In this document: one piece after another, positions 2,656 to 60,918 of the stretch
How the letters are laid out: each line of letters begins with the position of its first letter
Numbering within the stretch: position 1 is the stretch's first letter
Sequence record: PV946933.1
Source: a phage
Reading direction: 5' to 3' (one strand)
Length of the DNA stretch: 64,000 bases
Translations under genes and position numbers: made by a program
Notes under the pieces: generated by a model
What the model was told of the DNA's origin: nothing
The model's database searches: none
Seen by the model: only the letters and a program-made list of their open reading frames with translations

Positions 2656-2958
2656 ATGTTATACTCAAAGGCTCGTGAAATTTACGAAACTAAGATTAAA
2701 GAAGCTGTATTTCAATTCGCAACGACAATGCGATGGACAAATGACTGGGAGTATTCAAAAAATCATAAGAAGCCCATGGTGACAAGAAAGGCTCATATGT
2801 TAGTGTTAATAGACCGTGAGCAGATTAAAGCCCGAGAAGCCCTCCAGAATCATAAAAAGGCTGCCTTTGAATGGTTTATGGATAACACTGCTCCTGAGAC
2901 TAAGAAAGCGGTAAGCGCATGGTTCAGTGGAAAAAATTGTGAAAGAAGTTTCTTTTAG
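2656..2958 (+). CDS. hypothetical protein
   Basis: 100 aa; GGAGG 5 nt upstream of this ATG. Confidence 0.4.
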   Translation: MLYSKAREIYETKIKEAVFQFATTMRWTNDWEYSKNHKKPMVTRKAHMLVLIDREQIKAREALQNHKKAAFEWFMDNTAPETKKAVSAWFSGKNCERSFF

Positions 2959-2960
2959 TG

Positions 2961-3013
2961 GTTTACAAGACTGTTCCTCTGTGGTACTATACAACTATCA
3001 ACTACGGAGGAAC
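2961..3013 (+). promoter_or_regulatory. early promoter with SD-pairing inverted repeat
   Basis: GTTTAC ... TGTGGTACTAT; GTTCCTC (2973-2979) complementary to GAGGAAC (3007-3013) covering the SD. Confidence 0.55.
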
Positions 3014-3018
3014 ACAAA

Positions 3019-3546
3019 ATGAACGCTAAAGATATTTTCAACTTGGTAAATTACAACGATGGTAAATTTAAATCTGAAGCACAAAGTAAGTTCTTTAATG
3101 ACATCTCAATCGGAGGTGAAATCACAGTTGATGGAGGACAAATTTACAAATCCCGCTGGAATTGGATCGTTATTATTGATGAGATCGGTATTGTAGAAAT
3201 TTACAAGAATACGAATAAAAATCGTACATTACACTGGTCTCGTGATACTAACGAACAGTACAAAAAGGATAAAGCATCTAAATTATCTCGTGTAACTCAA
3301 GAAGATATTGAGTTCATCAAGAAAGATATTTTAATGTATGATAATTTAATTGCTGAAGAGCAAGCTGTTATTGATAAATTTGATGAGATTAAAGCTTCTC
3401 GTGAAATTCCTGATTTTATGAAAGAATCAGTAAATGAACGATACACTCTCATTTCAGAGCGTATTGAAACTTACAAAAAGCAAAGAGCTGAACGCCAAAA
3501 TACTCTTCGGAAGTTTGAAGAACGGTTAAAGACGGTACTCGCATAA
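3019..3546 (+). CDS. hypothetical protein with C-terminal coiled coil
   Basis: 175-aa ORF behind early promoter and SD; charged heptad-like C-terminus. Confidence 0.5.
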   Translation: MNAKDIFNLVNYNDGKFKSEAQSKFFNDISIGGEITVDGGQIYKSRWNWIVIIDEIGIVEIYKNTNKNRTLHWSRDTNEQYKKDKASKLSRVTQEDIEFIKKDILMYDNLIAEEQAVIDKFDEIKASREIPDFMKESVNERYTLISERIETYKKQRAERQNTLRKFEERLKTVLA

Positions 3547-27858: not shown

Positions 27859-27939
27859 ATACAAGTAATATAAATCTATACTTATGAAAAAGAGATGATT
27901 CTGGACCCTTTGGATTCCCTAAAATTTTTTCACAAAACT

Positions 27940-27969
27940 GTTTACATCCCTGTTCTTCCATGGTACTAT
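27940..27969 (+). promoter_or_regulatory. early promoter
   Basis: GTTTAC-N18-TGGTACTAT plus conserved leader. Confidence 0.6.
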
Positions 27970-28006
27970 ACAACTATCAACTACTGATACGGATTTGGAG
28001 AATGAA

Positions 28007-28387
28007 ATGAAAATCGCTATTTTGGTTATTGCATTGGGTCTTACTGGTTGTGTAGCTCAAGGACCGGTAGTAAATCAGTCTGATGTAGGAAAAATTGTAA
28101 ACTGTTCAAGCAAATTTTATAATCCTAATGTCAAGTGTTATAAAGAAGCTCCAAAACAGACAGTAGAACAAATGCAGGCGAATTTTGACGAAGCTATTCG
28201 TCCAGATGAATCTGCACAAGCATATCGTAATTCAGATGTGATTACGCGTGAAGAAAAAATTGAAAACTACTGCGCCATGCTTTGGGCAAATTGGGCTAAT
28301 AATTACCAATGGCGTACAGGTAAAAACGCTCCGATGGAGTATGTAGTGAATTCTTATAATTCATGTGTAAAAAATTTGACTAAGTGA
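28007..28387 (+). CDS. putative lipoprotein
   Basis: 126 aa; signal peptide with lipobox LTGC; flanked by terminator and promoter upstream. Confidence 0.5.
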   Translation: MKIAILVIALGLTGCVAQGPVVNQSDVGKIVNCSSKFYNPNVKCYKEAPKQTVEQMQANFDEAIRPDESAQAYRNSDVITREEKIENYCAMLWANWANNYQWRTGKNAPMEYVVNSYNSCVKNLTK

Positions 28388-32616: not shown

Positions 32617-34044
32617 GTGGTAGAAATTATTCTTTCTCATCTCATATTTGATCAAGCTTATTTTTCAAAAGTTTGGCCATATATGGATTCAGAATATTTT
32701 GAAAGTGGTCCAGCTAAAAATACGTTCAAATTAATTAAATCTCATGTTAATGAGTACCATAGCGTTCCATCTATTAATGCGTTAAATGTTGCATTAGAAA
32801 ATAGTTCATTTACTGAAACAGAATATTCTGGTGTAAAAACACTTATTTCAAAACTGGCTGATTCTCCGGAAGACCACAGTTGGTTAGTAAAAGAAACGGA
32901 AAAATATGTTCAGCAAAGGGCGATGTTTAATGCTACGTCTAAAATAATTGAAATTCAAACTAATGCTGAACTTCCTCCGGAAAAACGAAATAAGAAAATG
33001 CCGGATGTTGGTGCTATTCCTGACATCATGCGCCAAGCATTATCAATTTCATTTGATAGTTACGTTGGTCATGATTGGATGGATGACTATGAAGCACGTT
33101 GGCTATCTTATATGAATAAAGCCCGTAAGGTTCCATTTAAACTCAAAATTCTAAATAAAATTACTAAAGGCGGAGCTGAGACTGGAACACTGAACGTTTT
33201 AATGGCTGGTGTTAACGTTGGTAAGTCATTAGGATTATGTTCATTAGCAGCAGATTATTTACAGCTCGGACATAATGTTCTTTACATTTCCATGGAAATG
33301 GCAGAAGAAGTCTGTGCTAAGCGTATTGATGCTAATATGCTTGATGTTTCTCTTGATGACATTGATGATGGACATATTTCTTACGCTGAATATAAAGGAA
33401 AAATGGAAAAATGGCGTGAGAAATCTACTCTCGGTCGTTTAATCGTTAAACAGTATCCTACTGGTGGAGCAGACGCTAATACATTTCGTTCTCTTTTGAA
33501 CGAATTGAAGCTCAAGAAGAATTTTGTTCCAACAATCATTATTGTCGACTATCTAGGTATTTGTAAATCTTGCCGCATCAGAGTTTACTCAGAAAATAGT
33601 TACACAACTGTTAAAGCTATCGCAGAGGAATTGCGTGCTCTGGCTGTTGAAACCGAAACTGTTCTTTGGACTGCAGCGCAGGTTGGTAAGCAAGCTTGGG
33701 ATTCTTCTGATGTTAACATGAGCGATATTGCAGAATCCGCCGGTCTTCCAGCAACAGCTGATTTTATGCTTGCGGTCATTGAAACCGAGGAGTTAGCAGC
33801 TGCTGAACAACAACTCATTAAGCAAATCAAATCACGATATGGTGATAAGAATAAATGGAATAAGTTTTTGATGGGTGTTCAAAAAGGAAATCAAAAATGG
33901 GTAGAAATTGAGCAAGATTCTACTCCAACTGAAGTGAACGAAGTAGCAGGTTCACAGCAGATTCAGGCTGAACAGAACCGCTATCAAAGAAATGAATCGG
34001 CTCGAGCTCAGTTAGATGCTTTGGCAAATGAATTAAAATTTTAG
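32617..34044 (+). CDS. 41: replicative DNA helicase gp41 (DnaB-like)
   Basis: 475 aa, GTG start after AAGGAG; Walker A GVNVGKS; recognised as T4 gp41. Confidence 0.95.
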   Translation: MVEIILSHLIFDQAYFSKVWPYMDSEYFESGPAKNTFKLIKSHVNEYHSVPSINALNVALENSSFTETEYSGVKTLISKLADSPEDHSWLVKETEKYVQQRAMFNATSKIIEIQTNAELPPEKRNKKMPDVGAIPDIMRQALSISFDSYVGHDWMDDYEARWLSYMNKARKVPFKLKILNKITKGGAETGTLNVLMAGVNVGKSLGLCSLAADYLQLGHNVLYISMEMAEEVCAKRIDANMLDVSLDDIDDGHISYAEYKGKMEKWREKSTLGRLIVKQYPTGGADANTFRSLLNELKLKKNFVPTIIIVDYLGICKSCRIRVYSENSYTTVKAIAEELRALAVETETVLWTAAQVGKQAWDSSDVNMSDIAESAGLPATADFMLAVIETEELAAAEQQLIKQIKSRYGDKNKWNKFLMGVQKGNQKWVEIEQDSTPTEVNEVAGSQQIQAEQNRYQRNESARAQLDALANELKF

Positions 34045-34081
34045 TTTACAAGCTGACAAGACTATGGTATAGTAGTCTTGT
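34044..34081 (+). promoter_or_regulatory. early promoter embedded in stem-loop (PeSL-like)
   Basis: GTTTAC (34044-34049), -10 TGGTATAGT; 9-bp inverted repeat ACAAGACTA/TAGTCTTGT brackets the -10. Confidence 0.55.
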
Positions 34082-34102
34082 TGGTTAAATGAGGAGATTT
34101 TT

Positions 34103-34285
34103 ATGGAATTGGTAAAAGTAGTTTTTATGGGGTGGTTTAAGAATGAAAGCATGTTTACTAAAGAAATCACAATGATGAAAGATGACGTTCAATGGGCTAC
34201 TACTCAATATGCTGAAGTTAATAAAGCATTAGTTAAAGCTTTCATTGATGACAAGAAAGTATGTGAAGTGGATTGCCGAGGATAA
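34103..34285 (+). CDS. dmd: Dmd (antitoxin against host RnlA/LsoA)
   Basis: 60 aa immediately after gene 41; recognised as T4 Dmd. Confidence 0.75.
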   Translation: MELVKVVFMGWFKNESMFTKEITMMKDDVQWATTQYAEVNKALVKAFIDDKKVCEVDCRG

Positions 34286-34286
34286 T

Positions 34287-34508
34287 ATGCATATTGTTTT
34301 ATTTAAACCTACTCCGTATAATGTCAGGAAAAATACTCAATTCAAAGCACTTGTTGCAGATACGTGGGAATTGGTGTTAGATATTCCAGCAGAAGAAAGT
34401 CCTCCATTTGGTCGAGTGGAATTTATTAAATTTGCTGTGCGCCCTACAAAGCGGCAGATTCGCCAATGCAAAAGATACTTTCGTAAAATCGTCAAGTTAG
34501 AGAAATAG
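34287..34508 (+). CDS. hypothetical protein (61.4 position)
   Basis: 73 aa from ATG after GAGGA. Confidence 0.4.
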   Translation: MHIVLFKPTPYNVRKNTQFKALVADTWELVLDIPAEESPPFGRVEFIKFAVRPTKRQIRQCKRYFRKIVKLEK

Positions 34509-34531
34509 TTATTGATGCTAGTAAAATAGTA

Positions 34532-34574
34532 GTTTACAAGCTGATAGAGTTGTGTTATAGTAATTCTATCAGCT
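34532..34574 (+). promoter_or_regulatory. early promoter embedded in stem-loop (PeSL-like)
   Basis: GTTTAC, -10 TGTTATAGT; 10-bp inverted repeat AGCTGATAGA/TCTATCAGCT brackets the -10. Confidence 0.5.
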
Positions 34575-34593
34575 AATCGCGGAGAAAAGAAAA

Positions 34594-34848
34594 ATGATGC
34601 TAGTTAATAGAGAATATCAGTTTAAATCAGAAGAAGATTTGGAAAAATTCGCAAGTGGTTGTGAACTGAATAGACGCACAGCTAAAGTCATAGGATTAAA
34701 ACCCTTTACAGTTCTAGATTGTGAAGTTTCTAAATTCCGCAGAGGGTGTTCTATTAGCGGTCATGCTCTGGTTGATGGGAACACATTTTTCTTTGTTTTT
34801 AGCGTCAGAGAACTTTTATTGATTAACGAACTTGAGGAAATAAAATAG
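34594..34848 (+). CDS. hypothetical protein
   Basis: 84-aa ORF downstream of hairpin-embedded promoter. Confidence 0.45.
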   Translation: MMLVNREYQFKSEEDLEKFASGCELNRRTAKVIGLKPFTVLDCEVSKFRRGCSISGHALVDGNTFFFVFSVRELLLINELEEIK

Positions 34849-34905
34849 TTTACTTTTGTTGGAAATTGAGATACTATATAAACATAAACTACTGAGGAGA
34901 TTATC

Positions 34906-35202
34906 ATGAAAAAATTTGTTTTTGCTGCAATTTTTGCTTTGGCTTCTTGTGCTGCTCAGCCTGCTATGGCGGGTTATGATAAAGATTTGTGCGAATGGTC
35001 TATGACTGCAGATCAGACTGAGGTTGAAACTCAAATTGAAGCAGATATTATGAATATCGTTGAGCGTGATCGCCCTGAAATGAAAGCTGAAGTACAAAAA
35101 CAGCTTAAGTCTGGTGGTGGTGTAATGCAGTATAATTATGTTTTGTATTGCGATAAAAACTTCAATAATAAAAATATCATCGCTGAAGTGGTAGGTGAAT
35201 AA
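34906..35202 (+). CDS. sp: spackle periplasmic protein
   Basis: 98 aa; signal peptide; recognised as T4 Sp (61.3). Confidence 0.85.
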   Translation: MKKFVFAAIFALASCAAQPAMAGYDKDLCEWSMTADQTEVETQIEADIMNIVERDRPEMKAEVQKQLKSGGGVMQYNYVLYCDKNFNNKNIIAEVVGE

Positions 35203-36995: not shown

Positions 36996-37014
36996 CGCAA
37001 ATTTTACAAAATTT

Positions 37015-37061
37015 GTTTACTTTCTCAGCTTGCTGTGGTATTATAAAATAAACTGCTGAGG
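37015..37061 (+). promoter_or_regulatory. early promoter with SD-pairing inverted repeat
   Basis: GTTTAC-N18-TGTGGTATTAT; TCTCAGC (37023-37029) complementary to GCTGAGG (37055-37061) at the SD. Confidence 0.55.
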
Positions 37062-37069
37062 ATAATATA

Positions 37070-37507
37070 ATGATTAATAAAATTGTACATGAAATGGCTT
37101 TAAACGGAGATTCATATAAAATATCTGCCGTAGTTGAAAATTTCATACTTAATAAAGTAAAAGAATATTTCACTGATTGTTCAGTTAGTTATCAAGAAAA
37201 AATGGTTTTAATCGACGATACTGAAAAATCAAATAATTTGTTTTGTTCGAATTTTACAACTAAGAAGCGTACTAGAAGATTTGATATTGTCATTTCTCGC
37301 AATGGTAAAAAGCATATAATTGAAATCAAACACCAAGTTGGTGGAGGTACAGCCATTGATTCGGTTGGAATATATCTGGAAGATAAAGATAAATTAAAAG
37401 AATACACAAAAACTGAAAATCCTGTGTCATTGATGATATTAGATTTTTTGCCATGCGGATATTATCCGCGTAATAAGTGGACAAAAAGAGAATCATTTAC
37501 TGATTGA
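37070..37507 (+). CDS. putative PD-(D/E)xK-fold nuclease-like protein
   Basis: 145 aa; helix with Glu (AVVENF) followed by RRFDIVISRNGKKHIIEIK (D-x13-E-x-K); own early promoter; directly upstream of dam. Confidence 0.5.
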   Translation: MINKIVHEMALNGDSYKISAVVENFILNKVKEYFTDCSVSYQEKMVLIDDTEKSNNLFCSNFTTKKRTRRFDIVISRNGKKHIIEIKHQVGGGTAIDSVGIYLEDKDKLKEYTKTENPVSLMILDFLPCGYYPRNKWTKRESFTD

Positions 37508-37624
37508 TAATCCAACCATCCAAGCAAGGTTTAATGAATATGCTAAATCACAAAACGTGTTAGTATTACTATCAAATACATATGATGAAGAATTATATAA
37601 TTCGTTTTTTGCTGCAATAAATGA

Positions 37625-39321: not shown

Positions 39322-39329
39322 TAATTCAA

Positions 39330-39354
39330 GGACTCCTTCGGGAGTCCTTTTTTC
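39330..39354 (+). terminator. rho-independent terminator after soc
   Basis: GGACTCC-TTCG-GGAGTCC then TTTTTT. Confidence 0.7.
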
Positions 39355-39419
39355 ATTTAAACGGTTTACTTTCCAAAATGAGTATGGTATAATAGAATTA
39401 TCTTATAGAGGAGAGCGCT

Positions 39420-39626
39420 ATGTTAAATCGTTGGATTAAACCAAATGAAGATTTAGATATTATCATTTCACGACATGTAATGAAGAAATATGAACTACAG
39501 CCATGGTCTACAGAAGTTGTTGTACATTCATTTATGATGTACGCAGATGGTTCTGTCGAATTTAATGCAGAGATTCGATATGATTATGGTGAGAAGCAAG
39601 TTGAATTCAAGAGAGGCTTTTTGTAA
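39420..39626 (+). CDS. hypothetical protein
   Basis: 68-aa ORF. Confidence 0.45.
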   Translation: MLNRWIKPNEDLDIIISRHVMKKYELQPWSTEVVVHSFMMYADGSVEFNAEIRYDYGEKQVEFKRGFL

Positions 39627-41466: not shown

Positions 41467-41533
41467 TTCAAAAAGTTGTTTACTTTCCTTCCTAACAATG
41501 ATATGATAGCTTCTGAAGTATATGGAGGCTATC

Positions 41534-42157
41534 ATGATTATTAATCTTGCAGATGTTGAACAGTTATCTATAAAAGCTGAAAGTGTTGATTTTCAATATG
41601 ATATGTATAAAAAGGTCTGTGAAAAATTTACTGACTTTGAACAGTCAGTTCTTTGGCAATGTATGGAAGCCAAAAAGAATGAAGCTCTTCATCGGCAGTT
41701 GAATAAAATCGTTAAAAAGCATTTAACTGAATCACCTTATCAGTTATATCGTGGTATATCAAAATCGACAAAAGAACTCATTAAAGATTTACAAGTTGGA
41801 GAAGTGTTTTCAACGAACAGAGTAGATTCATTTACTACTAGTTTGCACACAGCATGCGGTTTTTCTTATGCTGAATATTTCACTGAAATAATATTTCGCT
41901 TAAAAACTGATAAAGCTTTTAATTACTCTGACCATATCAGCGATATTATACTTTCTTCTCCTAATACTGAGTTTAAGTATACATATGAAGATACTGATGG
42001 ATTAGATTCAGAACGTACTGATAACTTAATGATGATTGTGCGTGAACAAGAATGGATGATTCCAATTGGAAAGTATAAAATAACTTCTATTTCAAAAGAA
42101 AAATTACACGATTCATTTGGAACATTTAAAGTGTATGATATTGAGGTAGTTGAATGA
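41534..42157 (+). CDS. modB: ADP-ribosyltransferase ModB
   Basis: 207 aa from ATG after GGAGG; R-S-E ART motifs (YRG, STN/STS, EQEWMIP); paralog of next gene. Confidence 0.75.
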   Translation: MIINLADVEQLSIKAESVDFQYDMYKKVCEKFTDFEQSVLWQCMEAKKNEALHRQLNKIVKKHLTESPYQLYRGISKSTKELIKDLQVGEVFSTNRVDSFTTSLHTACGFSYAEYFTEIIFRLKTDKAFNYSDHISDIILSSPNTEFKYTYEDTDGLDSERTDNLMMIVREQEWMIPIGKYKITSISKEKLHDSFGTFKVYDIEVVE

Positions 42158-43939: not shown

Positions 43940-45255
43940 CATTTGATGATTTGACTGAAGGCCAGAAAAATGCCTTTAACATCGTTATGAGGGCTATCAA
44001 AGAAAAGAAACATCATGTAACTATTAATGGACCTGCTGGTACTGGTAAGACTACTCTTACTAAGTTCATCATTGAAGCCTTAATATCTACGGGCGAAACT
44101 GGCATTATTTTAGCAGCTCCTACTCATGCAGCTAAAAAGATTCTTTCAAAACTGTCAGGGAAAGAAGCGAGTACTATTCACAGTATTCTTAAAATTAACC
44201 CAGTAACATACGAAGAAAACGTTCTTTTTGAGCAAAAAGAAGTACCGGATTTGGCTAAATGCAGAGTATTAATCTGCGACGAAGTATCAATGTATGATAG
44301 AAAGCTATTTAAAATTCTGCTTTCAACTATTCCACCTTGGTGTACTATAATTGGAATAGGCGATAATAAGCAAATTAGACCTGTTGACCCAGGAGAAAAC
44401 ACTGCTTATATCAGTCCATTCTTTACGCACAAAGATTTTTATCAGTGTGAACTCACTGAAGTTAAACGCAGTAATGCTCCTATTATTGATGTAGCTACTG
44501 ATGTTCGCAACGGTAAGTGGATTTATGATAAAGTTGTTGACGGGCATGGAGTACGTGGATTTACTGGTGATACCGCTTTACGCGATTTTATGGTAAATTA
44601 TTTTTCAATCGTAAAATCACTAGATGATTTGTTTGAAAATCGTGTAATGGCATTTACGAATAAATCTGTTGACAAGTTAAATAGCATTATTCGTAAAAAG
44701 ATTTTTGAAACTGATAAAGATTTTATTGTCGGTGAAATTATTGTAATGCAGGAACCATTAATTAAAACATATAAAATTGATGGAAAGCCTGTGTCAGAAA
44801 TTATTTTTAATAACGGACAATTAGTTCGTATTATAGAAGCAGAATATACATCGACGTTTGTTAAAGCTCGTGGTGTTTCTGGGGAATATCTAATTCGTCA
44901 TTGGGATTTAACAGTAGAAACTTACGGCGATGATGAATATTATCGTGAAAAGATTAAAATAATTTCATCTGATGAAGAGCTGTATAAGTTTAACTTATTT
45001 TTAGGTAAAACGGCAGAAACTTATAAAAATTGGAATAAAGGTGGAAAAGCTCCGTGGAGCGATTTTTGGGATGCTAAATCACAGTTTAGTAAAGTGAAAG
45101 CACTTCCCGCATCAACATTCCATAAAGCTCAGGGTATGTCTGTAGACCGTGCTTTTATCTATACACCTTGCATTCATTATGCAGATGCTGAACTAGCTCA
45201 GCAGCTTCTTTATGTTGGTGTCACTCGTGGTCGTTATGATGTGTTTTATGTGTGA
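43936..45255 (+). CDS. dda: DNA helicase Dda (SF1)
   Basis: 439 aa; Walker A GPAGTGKTT; recognised as T4 Dda. Confidence 0.93.
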   Translation: MTFDDLTEGQKNAFNIVMRAIKEKKHHVTINGPAGTGKTTLTKFIIEALISTGETGIILAAPTHAAKKILSKLSGKEASTIHSILKINPVTYEENVLFEQKEVPDLAKCRVLICDEVSMYDRKLFKILLSTIPPWCTIIGIGDNKQIRPVDPGENTAYISPFFTHKDFYQCELTEVKRSNAPIIDVATDVRNGKWIYDKVVDGHGVRGFTGDTALRDFMVNYFSIVKSLDDLFENRVMAFTNKSVDKLNSIIRKKIFETDKDFIVGEIIVMQEPLIKTYKIDGKPVSEIIFNNGQLVRIIEAEYTSTFVKARGVSGEYLIRHWDLTVETYGDDEYYREKIKIISSDEELYKFNLFLGKTAETYKNWNKGGKAPWSDFWDAKSQFSKVKALPASTFHKAQGMSVDRAFIYTPCIHYADAELAQQLLYVGVTRGRYDVFYV

Positions 45256-45261
45256 GGATAT

Positions 45262-45522
45262 ATGATTAACATCAATTCAAAATATTTAAATCGTCTAATA
45301 GATGGTATAAAGAAGCATACTGATAAGCAAGATAATCTCAGTGTTATGGTAACAGGAGCTGAGCTCCTTTATAAGCTTAATCTTATAAGTGATACTATAC
45401 TAGCAATTAAACGAATTGAAAAACAATCATATCACAGTAATACAGATACGGTAATTACGCTAGATGAAAGTGTCTGTAAGCTGCTGATTAAATTTGAGGA
45501 AGCTATTTGTGGAAATAACTAA
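45262..45522 (+). CDS. hypothetical protein
   Basis: 86-aa ORF. Confidence 0.4.
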   Translation: MININSKYLNRLIDGIKKHTDKQDNLSVMVTGAELLYKLNLISDTILAIKRIEKQSYHSNTDTVITLDESVCKLLIKFEEAICGNN

Positions 45523-46678: not shown

Positions 46679-46708
46679 GTTTACTTCCTCGGTTAGTTGT
46701 GGTATTAT
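46679..46708 (+). promoter_or_regulatory. early promoter
   Basis: GTTTAC-N18-TGTGGTATTAT. Confidence 0.55.
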
Positions 46709-46735
46709 AACACCATAGCTACTGAGGATAATAAA

Positions 46736-47236
46736 ATGAAAATTTATCGTGTTGAATCATCGTTTAGTATTCTTGATTATGAAGATGCTATAACAATACG
46801 TCGAAATCTTTGTGTTCAAATAACACCGTACAGGAGTATAATAGATTCATGGAGCGAAGAGTGGCTATTACACGTAGGTTATGACAGACCTAATTTTATG
46901 CATCATAGCGATAATAATAAAAGAATTCCTTTACCACACGAAGATAAACTATTAGTTAAAAACGCTAATATAGTAATTAATACTAAGTTCAAGAAAGATT
47001 ATGTTGGAGTAGAATATCATATTCCAGGATGGTTTATAGCTCTTTATCATTTTGCTTTCGCTAGTGAATATGATATGATGAGATGGTTCACACGAGAAGA
47101 GCGGGAAGAATTATCTTCTAAAGGATTTTATCTCGCTGTATACGAAGTTCCTGAAGATGAAGTTATCATTGGCGGGCACCAAGTAATGTTCCGCAAATCG
47201 CATGCTGAACTCATAGATTTTATTGAAATGAGATAA
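46736..47236 (+). CDS. motB: MotB-like protein
   Basis: 166 aa from ATG after GAGGA; T4 motB position; identity not verified. Confidence 0.45.
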   Translation: MKIYRVESSFSILDYEDAITIRRNLCVQITPYRSIIDSWSEEWLLHVGYDRPNFMHHSDNNKRIPLPHEDKLLVKNANIVINTKFKKDYVGVEYHIPGWFIALYHFAFASEYDMMRWFTREEREELSSKGFYLAVYEVPEDEVIIGGHQVMFRKSHAELIDFIEMR

Positions 47237-47238
47237 TT

Positions 47239-47781
47239 ATGAAATTTAATTATACTCCTGAATACATACCAAATCCGGTAGCTAAACTGATTGATTTTGA
47301 TGTTGTAAGCACTTATGTATGCCCTGTTAAACCACTGGAAATTAAGGAACCTACTATGACTACCGCTATTGAAATCGGCAAAACCTACAAACTGGTTGAA
47401 ACTGAAATTAAAACCAATGCCTTGATTTCCGGCTATAAAACTTTGACTGATGTTTTTGGCGAAGGCGAATTTACTGTTGAAGACTTTGAAAAAAGTAAAT
47501 GGTTTACTAAATCTTATATTGTCCACGGTCGTCGTTTAGACAATAACAAAATAGAGAAAATCCTGGTTTATGAAGCAGAGTTCATCCTGTTCCAAGAAGT
47601 TGAAGAACAAGACCCTACTGACCTTCTAACTCATGCTGTAGCTATCAAGACTCCATTTATTTCGGTCTGTGGCTGGGTAACAGACCAGTGGATTGAAGAT
47701 GGTGTTGAACTTCTGAACGTTGTTCATGCAGGTGATTTTAGTGTAGTACCTCGTAGTGCGGTGGTAGCTATTTTAAATTAA
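47239..47781 (+). CDS. hypothetical protein (shares C-terminal domain with 47857-48354)
   Basis: 180 aa; C-terminal TDQWIEDGVELLNVV. Confidence 0.5.
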   Translation: MKFNYTPEYIPNPVAKLIDFDVVSTYVCPVKPLEIKEPTMTTAIEIGKTYKLVETEIKTNALISGYKTLTDVFGEGEFTVEDFEKSKWFTKSYIVHGRRLDNNKIEKILVYEAEFILFQEVEEQDPTDLLTHAVAIKTPFISVCGWVTDQWIEDGVELLNVVHAGDFSVVPRSAVVAILN

Positions 47782-47783
47782 TA

Positions 47784-47820
47784 GTTTACAAACTCTTGGG
47801 ACCAGAGTATAATGGTCCCT
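47784..47820 (+). promoter_or_regulatory. early promoter embedded in stem-loop (PeSL-like)
   Basis: GTTTAC, -10 GAGTATAAT; inverted repeat GGGACCA/TGGTCCC (47798-47804, 47814-47820) brackets the -10. Confidence 0.45.
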
Positions 47821-47856
47821 GGAGTATAAAATCTTTTTAACAAGTGAGAGATAACT

Positions 47857-48354
47857 ATGATTATTAATATTGGTGAAATTGCTCGTGTATCTGATAAATC
47901 CCGTTCTAAAGCAGCAGGAAAATTGGTTGAAATTGTAAGCATTCAGCTTAAACGTGGTGTTAAAGACGAAGATTCTGAAGTAAAAGTGCGTATCATTCCT
48001 AAAGATGGAAAGTCTAAACCTCAGTTTGGCTATGTTCGTGCGAAATTTCTTGAATCTGCGTTTTTGAAAGCTGTTCCTGCTAAAGGAATTGAAACGATTG
48101 ATACTTCGCATGTAGGTGTAGACTTTAAGTGGAAACTCGGTCAGGCTATTAAGTTCATTGCTCCTTATGAATTCGAATTTACTGAAGATGAGGAAGGGGT
48201 TGTTCAAAAACACCGTACTCGTGCTATGTGCGCATACATTACCGATCAGTGGGTAGAAGATGGCGTTAAGTTGTACAACGCAGTATTTTTAGGAACATAC
48301 AAAGTCATTCCCGAAAGTTGGATTAAACACTATAGCAAAGCCCGCTATGCATAA
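47857..48354 (+). CDS. hypothetical protein (shares C-terminal domain with 47239-47781)
   Basis: 165 aa; C-terminal TDQWVEDGVKLYNAV. Confidence 0.5.
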   Translation: MIINIGEIARVSDKSRSKAAGKLVEIVSIQLKRGVKDEDSEVKVRIIPKDGKSKPQFGYVRAKFLESAFLKAVPAKGIETIDTSHVGVDFKWKLGQAIKFIAPYEFEFTEDEEGVVQKHRTRAMCAYITDQWVEDGVKLYNAVFLGTYKVIPESWIKHYSKARYA

Positions 48355-48383
48355 AATTTAAAATTTTTCATAAAACTATATAC

Positions 48384-48426
48384 ATCAGTAGTTGATTATG
48401 GTACTATATCAATATCAACTACTGAT
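48384..48426 (+). promoter_or_regulatory. -10 element inside 13-bp perfect inverted repeat
   Basis: ATCAGTAGTTGAT (48384-48396) and ATCAACTACTGAT (48414-48426) flank TATGGTACTAT; no canonical GTTTAC -35. Confidence 0.45.
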
Positions 48427-48451
48427 ACAGAAAAACAACTTGGAGAATAAA

Positions 48452-48721
48452 ATGGAAAACTTAATTATCATCGAACAATCTTTCAACGATTATGGTACGG
48501 CTTATGGTTATCGTGCGATAATGGAAGATTCTCGTGGATGTGTTATCGATATTGCTGAATGTAAAGATTTACTGCAGCTTTTGAAGATTGTTCGTAAAAA
48601 TTGGGATTGTGAAAACATTAAAGTTCGTGTTGTAACGGAAGAAGAAACTGTTTTTCATGATGTAAAATTTGCCAAAGGTGCTGCTACTCTTCTGAAACGC
48701 ATCACTCCAATGTTCAATTAA
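48452..48721 (+). CDS. hypothetical protein
   Basis: 89 aa from ATG after GGAG in conserved leader. Confidence 0.45.
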   Translation: MENLIIIEQSFNDYGTAYGYRAIMEDSRGCVIDIAECKDLLQLLKIVRKNWDCENIKVRVVTEEETVFHDVKFAKGAATLLKRITPMFN

Positions 48722-48734
48722 TGAGGAAATTGTA

Positions 48735-48950
48735 ATGAAACGTAAAATTGTTCAGAACTGCACTAATGACGAATTTGAAGATGTATTATTCGATCCAGAT
48801 TTGGTAGTAGTTCAAAAGGAACACACCATTAAGTTTACCCACTTGACTTCGGTTTATGTGTATGAAAAGGTTGGTGATAAACAACCAATTTATGGTGTAT
48901 TTCGTGAAATTACTGAAGATGGCACAACTTACTGGAAGGAAATTTATTAA
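48735..48950 (+). CDS. hypothetical protein (T4 cef-sized)
   Basis: 71-aa ORF. Confidence 0.45.
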
Positions 48951-49369
48951 TGGCTATTAAATTTGAAGTTAATAAATGGTATCAATTTAAAAATAAACAA
49001 GCTCAAGAAAATTTTATTAAAGACCATACTGATAACGGAATCTATGCACGACGTTTAGGTATAGAACCTTTTAAAATTTTAGATGTTGACTATTACGGGC
49101 GTCCTACTAAAATTGTGACATCTACTGGCACAATTGGATATTCAACATGTGGTACAGTCATTGACGAAAACTTTATCTGGCTTTCTACTAACGAAGCTGA
49201 GTTCTTTGATGAAGTGGAAAATCCATATCAGGCATCTGAAGAGCAAGAGCAGGAAGAGCAAGAACAAATAGAAGATTTCACAGAATTCCCTGTCATGAAA
49301 GTTACTATTGAAAATAATGAACAGGCATGGTCTTTGTATCAGATGTTGAAAGCACATTTTAAGGAATAA
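48950..49369 (+). CDS. hypothetical protein with acidic Glu/Gln-rich stretch
   Basis: 139-aa ORF. Confidence 0.45.
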
Positions 49370-49550: not shown

Positions 49551-49922
49551 ATGTTTAAAATTGGTAAGAAATATCGTGTTCGCGAAGGTGAAGAAAAGAA
49601 ATATCTACTTTCTTCTATTTATAGGAATGGTTCTATTAATGCCGTAATATCTACAAGCGAATTTATCGTTGAAGATATGAAAGGCCATAATGTTACAATG
49701 ATTAGTACAGCATCTGGAAATGATGGAAAAATTCTTCACAGTTTTCAGAGTAATGTTCTAATTTATGATGAAGAATTTGACTTCTTCGAAGAAGTTCCTG
49801 AAGATTTTGATTTTGAATGCACTATCACTATGAAATCTGGCGACCCTCTTTCTTTTACAGTTAAAGATGAAAGAAGTCGCTTGAGAATTATTAGTCTCCT
49901 TCAAGCCATTAAATTTGAGTGA
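49551..49922 (+). CDS. hypothetical protein
   Basis: 123 aa from ATG. Confidence 0.45.
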   Translation: MFKIGKKYRVREGEEKKYLLSSIYRNGSINAVISTSEFIVEDMKGHNVTMISTASGNDGKILHSFQSNVLIYDEEFDFFEEVPEDFDFECTITMKSGDPLSFTVKDERSRLRIISLLQAIKFE

Positions 49923-49926
49923 AATT

Positions 49927-56337: not shown

Positions 56338-56353
56338 AAATTTTCACAAAACG

Positions 56354-56383
56354 GTTTACATACCACAAGGACTGTGGTACTAT
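56354..56383 (+). promoter_or_regulatory. early promoter
   Basis: GTTTAC-N18-TGTGGTACTAT plus conserved leader. Confidence 0.6.
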
Positions 56384-56417
56384 ACAACTATCAACTGATA
56401 CGGATTTGGAGAATAAA

Positions 56418-56624
56418 ATGTTTACTACAGCTGAATTAAAACGAGCAAAAGCTAAGAAAGGGAAAGGAAAATATAAAGCTGAATTAGTTAAAGAACTTCA
56501 GTTTGCTGAGGCTGAATTGAATTCAATGATTATTCAAAATGCTCCAGAAACTGAAATTGCTCTTAAACGTATTGCGAATAAGTGTCTTCGTGATGCAATT
56601 GTCGATCTTTTAGCGGATTATTGA
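56418..56624 (+). CDS. hypothetical protein (ndd-upstream cluster)
   Basis: 68 aa from ATG after GGAG in conserved leader. Confidence 0.4.
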   Translation: MFTTAELKRAKAKKGKGKYKAELVKELQFAEAELNSMIIQNAPETEIALKRIANKCLRDAIVDLLADY

Positions 56625-56976: not shown

Positions 56977-57071
56977 AAATTTTGAATTCTGTACTTATTG
57001 CTTGTGCGTGGTGGGTTGCGCAAGTTTCGGCAGTAGTGATTGGTATTCACATTTATTACGAATATTTTTAA
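56973..57071 (+). CDS. tiny hydrophobic peptide
   Basis: 32-aa ORF MKILNSVLIACAWWVAQVSAVVIGIHIYYEYF. Confidence 0.25.
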   Translation: MKILNSVLIACAWWVAQVSAVVIGIHIYYEYF

Positions 57072-57078
57072 AAAAGTT

Positions 57079-57131
57079 GTTTACAAGACTGTTCCTCTGT
57101 GGTATTATTACTCTATCAACTACGGAGGAAC
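57079..57131 (+). promoter_or_regulatory. early promoter with SD-pairing inverted repeat
   Basis: near-copy of 2961-3013: GTTTACAAGACTGTTCCTCTGTGGTATTAT ... CGGAGGAAC. Confidence 0.55.
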
Positions 57132-57136
57132 AGAAA

Positions 57137-57250
57137 ATGAAAAAGATTGTTAAAGCTATATGGAATGTAGTTATAATACTAGTAGTTTTGAGTATATTCC
57201 CAATCGTTTTAATGATTGATGTATTAAACGCTTACTTTGGATTTATGTGA
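57137..57250 (+). CDS. tiny hydrophobic peptide
   Basis: 37 aa from ATG after GGAGG in promoter leader. Confidence 0.3.
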   Translation: MKKIVKAIWNVVIILVVLSIFPIVLMIDVLNAYFGFM

Positions 57251-60192: not shown

Positions 60193-60211
60193 AAAATTTT
60201 TTCACAAAACG

Positions 60212-60241
60212 GTTTACAACCAAAGCATACTGTGGTACTAT
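60212..60241 (+). promoter_or_regulatory. early promoter (motA)
   Basis: GTTTAC-N18-TGTGGTACTAT plus conserved leader. Confidence 0.6.
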
Positions 60242-60282
60242 ACAACTATCAACTACTGATACAGAATTACGGAGATTAGAAA

Positions 60283-60918
60283 ATGTCTAAAGTAACTTAC
60301 ATCATCAAAGCTTCTAACGATGTTCTGAATGAAAAAACTGCTGCGATTTTAATTACCATTGCTAAGAAAGATTTCATTACAGCTGCAGAAGTTCGTGAGG
60401 TGCATCCAGATTTAGGTAATGCAGTAGTTAATAGTAATATTGGGGTATTGATTAAAAAAGGCCTGGTAGAGAAATCTGGTGATGGATTAATCATTACTGG
60501 TGAAGCTCAGGATATTATTTCAAATGCAGCAACTTTATACGCACAGGAAAATGCTCCTGAACTGTTGAAAAAACGAGCAACACGTAAAGCTCGCGAAATT
60601 ACTTCTGATATGGAAGAAGATAAAGACTTCATGTTAAAACTTTTAGATGAAAATGGATTTGTTCTTAAAAAGATTGAAACTTATCGTAGTAACTATCTCG
60701 CTATTTTAGAAAAACGCACTCACGGAATTCGTAATTTTGAAATTAACAACAATGGAAATATGCGAATTTTTGGATACAAAATGATGGAACATCATATTCA
60801 GAAATTTACTGATATCGGAATGTCATGTAAAATCGCTAAAAACGGTAATGTGTATCTTGACATTAAACGCTCAGCAGAAAACATTGAAGCTGTAATCACC
60901 GTAGCATCTGAACTGTGA
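60283..60918 (+). CDS. motA: middle-transcription activator MotA
   Basis: 211 aa; recognised as T4 MotA. Confidence 0.9.
   Translation: MSKVTYIIKASNDVLNEKTAAILITIAKKDFITAAEVREVHPDLGNAVVNSNIGVLIKKGLVEKSGDGLIITGEAQDIISNAATLYAQENAPELLKKRATRKAREITSDMEEDKDFMLKLLDENGFVLKKIETYRSNYLAILEKRTHGIRNFEINNNGNMRIFGYKMMEHHIQKFTDIGMSCKIAKNGNVYLDIKRSAENIEAVITVASEL

Follow-up and report, generated by a model that had tools for sequence, protein, structure and literature searches.

Four early promoters in a 64,000-nt stretch of phage DNA (record PV946933.1; hereafter the window) were each found to be combined with a perfect inverted repeat that brackets the -10 element. They lie ahead of dmd (site 1), an 84-aa open reading frame (ORF; site 2), motB (site 3) and an 89-aa ORF (site 4). 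The inverted repeats are a real, non-random and selected feature, and we consider it fairly probable that the sites are composite elements of the promoter-early stem-loop (PeSL) type, in which an early sigma-70 promoter and a hairpin active at the RNA level are encoded by a single DNA stretch. By its sequence the window is Tequatrovirus (T4-like); the neighbourhood of the sites was 93-98% identical to many genomes of this genus, T4 included, and the + strand is the strand of early transcription.

The coordinates of all features are collected in Table 1. The four repeats reported in the first-pass annotation were all recovered as perfect, only the core at site 3 ending at 47819 rather than 47820. 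That annotation had placed the -10 in the loop of each repeat. Bracketing of the -10 was confirmed at every site, but at sites 1-3 the 3' arm already starts with the final T of the -10, so that the other five -10 bases stand in a loop of 6-8 nt, which closes at the fifth -10 base with striking regularity. The architecture described as common to all four was likewise shared by sites 1-3, whereas site 4 has ATATAC in place of GTTTAC at the -35 and keeps an extended -10 (TGGTACTAT, last base 48407). The extended -10 of site 1 is TGGTATAGT, with its last base at 34073, and this promoter is identical in T4; at the position of site 3, the annotation of phage DalCa carries a 'promoter' feature. The arm sequences were unrelated from site to site, and the flanks of all four sites were A/T-rich. 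At site 1 the -35 and the upstream stop codon overlap (TAG of gene 41 at 34042-34044, sharing one G); the stop codon lies 2 nt from the -35 at site 3 (stop at 47781) and 22-23 nt from it at sites 2 and 4, and the 3' end of every element carries the Shine-Dalgarno (SD) sequence and start codon of the downstream gene.

The early promoter motif GTTTAC-N18-TANNNT is real: a search for it, as proposed with the first-pass annotation, returned 21 occurrences in the window, exclusively on the + strand, compared to 0.9 expected. These 21 matches and site 4 made up a set of 22 promoters, in which the 18-nt spacer was compared with the 24 nt after the -10 for perfect complementarity, with 5000 shuffles as reference. 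Repeats of at least 7 bp were present at 6/22 promoters, compared to 0.34 expected from the shuffles and 0.62 at 22 random genomic places, and repeats of at least 9 bp at 3/22 promoters (0.017 expected); 0/5000 shuffles attained either observed count. A wider repeat search, and a control in which spacers were paired with the downstream sequence of other promoters, gave similar results. The repeats are thus commoner at promoters than in shuffled sequence of the window, in agreement with the earlier proposal. In Mosigvirus JS09, repeats of at least 7 bp occurred at 3/7 promoters (0.28 expected, P = 0.002); the enrichment there is independent, with unrelated repeat arms and intergenic DNA that is not alignable to the window. 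A metagenome scan with the pattern TTTTAGTTTAC-N18-TATAGT was too loose and returned mostly unrelated sequences, which were used as an external null. Among the 107 distinct matches listed, only two T4-like ones (-18.9 kcal/mol) folded at -15 kcal/mol or below, and the best fold of the other matches listed was -14.7 kcal/mol.

When folded as sense RNA, the four hairpins reached free energies (dG) of -18 to -20 kcal/mol (z -5.1 to -6.9). Site 2 formed 14 bp including two G·U pairs (-18.0 kcal/mol, z -5.6), site 3 formed 12 bp with a 1x1 internal loop (-20.2 kcal/mol, z -5.1), and the read-through segments folded at z of -4 or below. Transcription from sigma-70 promoters starts 6-8 nt past the -10. 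Because the 5' arm lies in the promoter spacer, upstream of the start expected from this established knowledge, the hairpin would be formed only by RNA reading through from the upstream gene. In RNA folded from +1 onward the hairpin was absent, with 0 to -1.3 kcal/mol at sites 1, 2 and 4, and -4.7 kcal/mol at site 3, due to a separate small hairpin further along the 5' untranslated region (5'UTR). The SD and AUG were unpaired and outside the hairpin at 4/4 sites, the hairpins stopping 5-16 nt before the SD. That the stem-loops could act in read-through RNA is, by this placement of the 5' arm and by the motB covariation described below, the best-supported part of the first-pass annotation.

The motB promoter (site 3) was aligned across 10 phage sequences from three genera (Tequatrovirus, Gaprivervirus and Dhakavirus). 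In this alignment, 92% of cells were paired, compared to 33-46% when the partners were slid, and changes on both sides were seen in 4/9 pairs (A-U/G-C, G-C/A-U/G·U, C-G/U-A/U·G and U·G/G-C/U-A). G·U occurred in 12 cells and A·C in none, and RNAalifold independently predicted the same helix. Because the covariation includes G·U and no A·C, the results favour selection on sense-strand RNA structure, rather than on a DNA cruciform or operator. In the Tequatrovirus stems, sense-strand pairing was retained in 7/8 substitutions; at site 1, the window has G·U at one pair where T4 has G-C and an IMG/VR contig A-U, and another pair had changed from A-U to G·U. A search of IMG/VR with the Dmd protein and the promoter pattern returned few near-identical T4-like contigs, whose substitutions were too few for covariation at site 1. 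The sense fold was better than the antisense fold at 10/10 structured promoters, also after composition correction, an energy test that we counted as supporting evidence only. In Dhakavirus, the motB-cef promoter (site 4) has a different hairpin in a different register, and in Dhakavirus QL01 the -10 of this orthologue falls within the 3' arm of the stem. As the -10 is in the stem there, the loop placement is not in itself what is conserved.

Two further observations concern sites 3 and 4. In the motB-promoter hairpin, the outer part of the 3' arm has GGAG with an A-rich run behind it (47821-47833, GGAGTATAAAATC), a context that is conserved between genera (GGAGAATAAAC in Gaprivervirus and Dhakavirus) and that resembles in sequence the cleavage context of RegB. 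Read-through RNA would hold the GGAG in a helix, and the local transcript would carry it unpaired at its 5' end. Site 4 belongs to a family of repeated promoter and 5'UTR cassettes of the form tttcacaaaacgGTTTAC...TGGTACTATacaactATCAACTAC(TG)...GGAGAATAAAATG, with copies at 1510-1590, 2950-3020, 27930-28010, 48364-48455, 56340-56420, 57065-57140 and 60200-60285. It is a diverged copy of the cassettes seen at 1522, 2961, 27940, 56354, 57079 and 60212, and its spacer, which holds the 5' arm, is now complementary to the family's conserved 5'UTR motif (ATCAACTACTGAT). These cassettes are probably equivalent to the IP-locus repeats described by Repoila et al. 1994.

These findings suggest the following mechanism. 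The 5' arm takes up the promoter spacer, whose sequence can otherwise vary freely, and the 3' arm extends from where the -10 ends to about +10. Local transcripts, beginning about 7 nt after the -10, would have no 5' arm and remain unstructured, and read-through RNA from 41, 61.4, motB.1 and motB would hold both arms and form the hairpin right after the upstream stop codon. There, the hairpin would most likely mark the cistron boundary of the upstream message, where it would pause or attenuate read-through, protect the message from 3'-to-5' decay, or both; we infer the start positions as well as this effect on RNA, be it attenuation or protection of the 3' end of that message. Mosigvirus has a canonical UUCG terminator between gene 41 and the promoter that follows. 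The Tequatrovirus hairpin, overlapping the promoter, stands in the same place, which suggests by analogy that it takes the functional place of a 3'-end signal for gene 41 RNA. The loop placement of the -10 is probably a packing consequence of intergenic gaps of 60-75 nt: since the promoter and 5'UTR fill the entire gap, with the stop codon at or near the -35 at sites 1 and 3, a hairpin would have no room other than the spacer and the first bases to be transcribed. The conserved A-rich stretch with GTTTAC, together with the 5'UTR/SD, could serve as short homologies for the exchange of gene modules.

The elements had also been described as mobile units flanking plastic regions, with small accessory ORFs between them. 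This description holds only in part: sites 2, 3 and 4 adjoin variable modules in relatives, site 1 is fixed in position across the genus, and motB, with 165 aa, is not a small ORFan. The site 2 cassette is missing in T4, T2, T6 and PST, and its flanks carry direct repeats, AAAATAG(TA)GTTTAC, at 34523-34537 and 34842-34853, a sequence arrangement compatible with recombination between neighbouring elements. Homology to the window begins at 47782 in many phages, just ahead of the site 3 -35, and stops at 48458-48462 in many others, just past the ATG that follows site 4. In RB27, 715 bp are replaced up to 30 nt before site 4, and T4 (positions 34139-34200 of the T4 sequence compared) has a 200-bp deletion in the 89-aa ORF. 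In the proposed comparison with breakpoints, 8/33 breakpoints lay between -40 and +80 of a promoter, such positions making up 3.7% of all, but this excess is largely due to the intergenic location of breakpoints. The junctions fell in conserved promoter parts (the A-rich/-35 edge) or 5'UTR/ATG parts, and not within the repeats.

Further differences among relatives were noted at and beyond these sites. The T4 deletion leaves a short remnant ORF behind the same promoter, 5'UTR and ATGGAAAA. Compared to T4, the window also has insertions at 37001-37547 (546 bp), 45255-45485 (230 bp) and 49553-49923 (370 bp), the first of which begins 14 nt before the early promoter at 37015. In a T4-like metagenome contig (OBRH01000009.1, 5981-6300), an exact copy of the site 1 promoter/hairpin precedes a dmd allele of 64 aa that has diverged strongly (MEEFAKVVFIGWFENG...); this allele may be informative about the specificity of Dmd as an antitoxin.

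Several results weigh against the proposed RNA role or limit its reach. A U-tract follows the hairpin at 0/4 sites (tails UGGUUAAAU, AAUCGCGG, UGGAGUAU and ACAGAAAA), and a terminator scan of the window detected none of the four hairpins while detecting 39328-39349; efficient intrinsic termination is therefore unlikely at these sites. A genome-wide map of transcription start sites or 3' ends for T4 was not found in the literature. The covariation was seen at a single site and in about four lineages; within the genus, sites 1, 2 and 4 have near-invariant stems, a conservation that could reflect recent ancestry, and the Mosigvirus motB promoter is without a hairpin bracketing the -10. The strand asymmetry is partly compositional, with G exceeding C on the strand and 68% of random windows being sense-biased. 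Among non-coding breakpoints, 8/13 were near promoters compared to 36% expected, a modest excess.

The hairpins were also compared with known RNA signals. A canonical terminator was rejected for all four, as they have no U-tract, and no match at the gathering score was obtained with Rfam across the whole window. Typical RNase III sites need stems longer than 12-15 bp, and RNase III substrates were rejected, as the stems of 12-15 bp are too short. The sequence at 39328-39349 is a canonical intrinsic terminator (AAGGACTCC-TTCG-GGAGTCCTT followed by TTTT), located 15 nt before the early promoter at 39364; this separate terminator-then-promoter layout is unlike the overlapping hairpins.

Other explanations of the repeats were weighed against an RNA-acting hairpin. 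The 7-bp arms of site 3, taken alone, would be unremarkable among 22 promoters, but the idea that the repeats are chance palindromes of AT-rich intergenic DNA has a negligible probability and was ruled out by the shuffle and permutation tests, the weaker folds of the metagenome null and the covariation at site 3. It is highly improbable that the element acts on DNA, either as a cruciform that exposes the -10 when supercoiled or as a palindromic operator, tuning the promoter. The regular loop of sites 1-3 is what such an element would offer in its favour; however, G·U (G·T) is tolerated and A·C is absent, an asymmetry unexpected for DNA, the antisense strand folds less well, and the -10 does not keep its place with respect to the stem, being within it in Dhakavirus, while RB49 stems are often wholly in the spacer. 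A shared operator was rejected, as the arms are unrelated between sites. An origin of the repeats as recombination features, that is as hot spots or by-products (template switching or a site for a recombination protein) with no role in RNA, is improbable as well, though less so than an action on DNA. PeSLs have been proposed as recombination sites, with one RB49 mini-circle junction lying inside the loop of a stem-loop (PMC2839356), and three of the four sites are beside variable modules. The breakpoints, however, lie outside the repeats, at the A-rich/-35 edge or past the 5'UTR/ATG; arms that differ at every site leave no common protein site; and compensatory changes with G·U intermediates indicate that sense-RNA pairing is selected.

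Control of translation, in which read-through would lower translation of the downstream gene so that expression came mainly from its own early promoter, is an unlikely role for the four hairpins, in view of their unpaired SD and AUG and of the distance at which they end before the SD, although the paradigm is established for T4 (PMC3014915) and similar layouts occur elsewhere in the window. Spacers complementary to their own SD were found at the promoters 2961, 57079, 46679 and 41478, and more weakly at 37015 and 39364; at 41478, it is the -10 itself, not the spacer, that is complementary to the SD or start codon. The read-through RNA of these anti-SD promoters folded at -15 to -24 kcal/mol and the local transcript was unstructured. 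Complementarity to the SD over 6 nt or more was present at three promoters compared to 0.27 expected, two of the three being paralogous copies, and Mosigvirus has the same layout at the 41-orf041 and orf041-orf040 promoters. By analogy, the read-through RNA of such promoters would be translationally silent and the local transcript open.

Altogether, 8-10/22 early promoters (about 40%) lie within helices that only read-through RNA can form. A promoter within a hairpin may, as a tentative extension that we hold to be possible but doubtful, be a general design rule of T-even early units, by which the phage sorts RNAs according to their origin. If so, a 3' arm over the SD would tie translation to the local early promoter and extend the principle of e, soc, 49 and I-TevI to early genes, and a 3' arm off the SD would leave a helix that marks the end of the upstream message.

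Table 1. Positions of the promoter/hairpin elements, neighbouring genes and anti-SD promoters in the window
Feature	Position	Strand	Details
Site 1 promoter (of dmd)	34044-34073	+	-35 GTTTAC 34044-34049; 18-nt spacer; -10 TATAGT 34068-34073
Site 1 repeat arms	34056-34064 / 34073-34081		ACAAGACTA / TAGTCTTGT; 9-bp core
Site 1 hairpin as RNA	34051-34086	+	15 bp via G·U pairs; dG -18.9 kcal/mol; z -6.9
Site 2 promoter (of 84-aa ORF)	34532-34561	+	-35 34532-34537; -10 TATAGT 34556-34561
Site 2 hairpin	34539-34574	+	arms AGCTGATAGA / TCTATCAGCT; perfect core 10 bp
Site 2 cassette	34511-34840	+	331 bp; promoter/hairpin and 84-aa ORF
Site 3 promoter (of motB)	47784-47813	+	-35 47784-47789; -10 TATAAT 47808-47813
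Site 3 hairpin	47792-47825	+	core GGGACCA/TGGTCCC 47798-47819; outer helix ACUCU/GGAGU
Site 4 promoter (of 89-aa ORF)	48378-48407	+	weak -35 ATATAC 48378-48383
Site 4 hairpin	48384-48426	+	13-bp perfect arms; dG -20.2 kcal/mol; z -6.9
Gene 41	32617-34044
dmd	34103-34285
61.4	about 34288-34508
84-aa ORF	34594-34848		PHROG family annotated 'goF'
sp	34906-35202
motB.1-like ORF	47239-47781
motB	47857-48354		165 aa
89-aa ORF	48452-48721		function unassigned (phrog_3720)
cef	from 48735
Anti-SD/start-codon promoter	2961-3021
Anti-SD/start-codon promoter	57079-57139
Anti-SD/start-codon promoter	46679-46738
Anti-SD/start-codon promoter	41478-41536
Anti-SD/start-codon promoter	37015-37072		weaker
Anti-SD/start-codon promoter	39364-39422		weaker

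Among the genes listed, the 84-aa ORF behind site 2 matched the PHROG family 'goF mRNA metabolism modulator' with E = 3e-20, and the true goF of the window is at 48950-49369. The 84-aa ORF would, judged from these matches, be either a short paralogue or a case of carried-over annotation.

T4 is a reference for phage gene regulation, and its promoter-overlapping hairpins have so far been discussed mainly as recombination sites. Selection on the sense RNA and the absence of the hairpins from local transcripts would give them a testable function, namely boundary marking or gating by transcript origin, and genome compaction would account for the odd placement of the -10 in a loop. This would provide annotators with a rule for such elements and phage engineers with a caution, as promoter spacers of T4-like phages would not be free sequence.

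By definition, a PeSL begins with the upstream stop codon within A/T-rich sequence, followed by an early promoter, a stem-loop, and the SD and ATG (Arbiol et al. 2010, PMC2839356). Their stem-loops take five positions, most commonly in the -35/-10 spacer or overlapping the -10; promoter activity was shown, and the stem-loop of RB49 PeSL211/210, which has no U-tract, cut downstream lacZ about as much as rrnB T1 (PMC2839356). We folded ten intergenic PeSLs of RB49, some of which have GGGGATC...GATCCCC in the spacer, while in others the stem brackets or overlaps the -10 (193/192, 199/198, 205/204 and 208/207); none has a U-tract. The match to PeSLs asserted in the first-pass annotation thus held for the order of parts and for the stem-loop positions, with the same layouts recurring in the RB49 folds. 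The four sites have the A/T-rich start with a stop codon, the early promoter, a stable stem-loop at a described position and the SD/start codon, and like PeSLs they occur in many copies on the early strand and may often lie beside variable small ORFs. In sequence they agree with the structural definition of a PeSL, and the kind is one already published. They differ from the RB49 elements in having A/U-rich stems with unique arms, where RB49 stems are of the form G(n)...C(n), and terminator activity and mini-circles have been demonstrated for the RB49/phi1 PeSLs only.

The class was later extended to PST/T4 and nt-1/KVP40 (Comeau et al. 2014, PMC4122927). For PST/T4, the consensus is TTTACW-N17-TAYWAT with stems that are more variable and A/T-rich, and a figure legend puts the stem-loops, AGNA-loop-TCNT, 'just upstream of the promoter' (PMC4122927). 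Sites 1-3 match this consensus exactly and site 4 deviates at the -35, but the stems in the window enclose the -10 instead of standing just upstream of the promoter. The T-even IP-locus repeats, as far as they are summarised in PMC2839356 from Repoila et al. 1994, combine T4 early promoters with weak A/T-rich stem-loops of variable size. The likeness extends to a conserved 5'UTR, the family in the window including site 4 as a diverged copy; the difference is that sites 1-3 fall outside this repeat family and that the site 4 spacer was replaced by the complement of its own 5'UTR.

Intrinsic terminators share with the four sites a stable hairpin directly past a stop codon and differ from them by their U-tract, which is absent here, and by the A/U-rich stems of the present hairpins. 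The T4 genes e, soc, 49 and I-TevI have inhibitory hairpins at their translation starts with a promoter inside (PMC3014915). As in the window, the promoter is inside the helix and only long read-through transcripts fold; however, the hairpins of e, soc, 49 and I-TevI sequester the SD/AUG and enclose a late promoter, whereas the promoters described here are early and the SD is free at all four sites.

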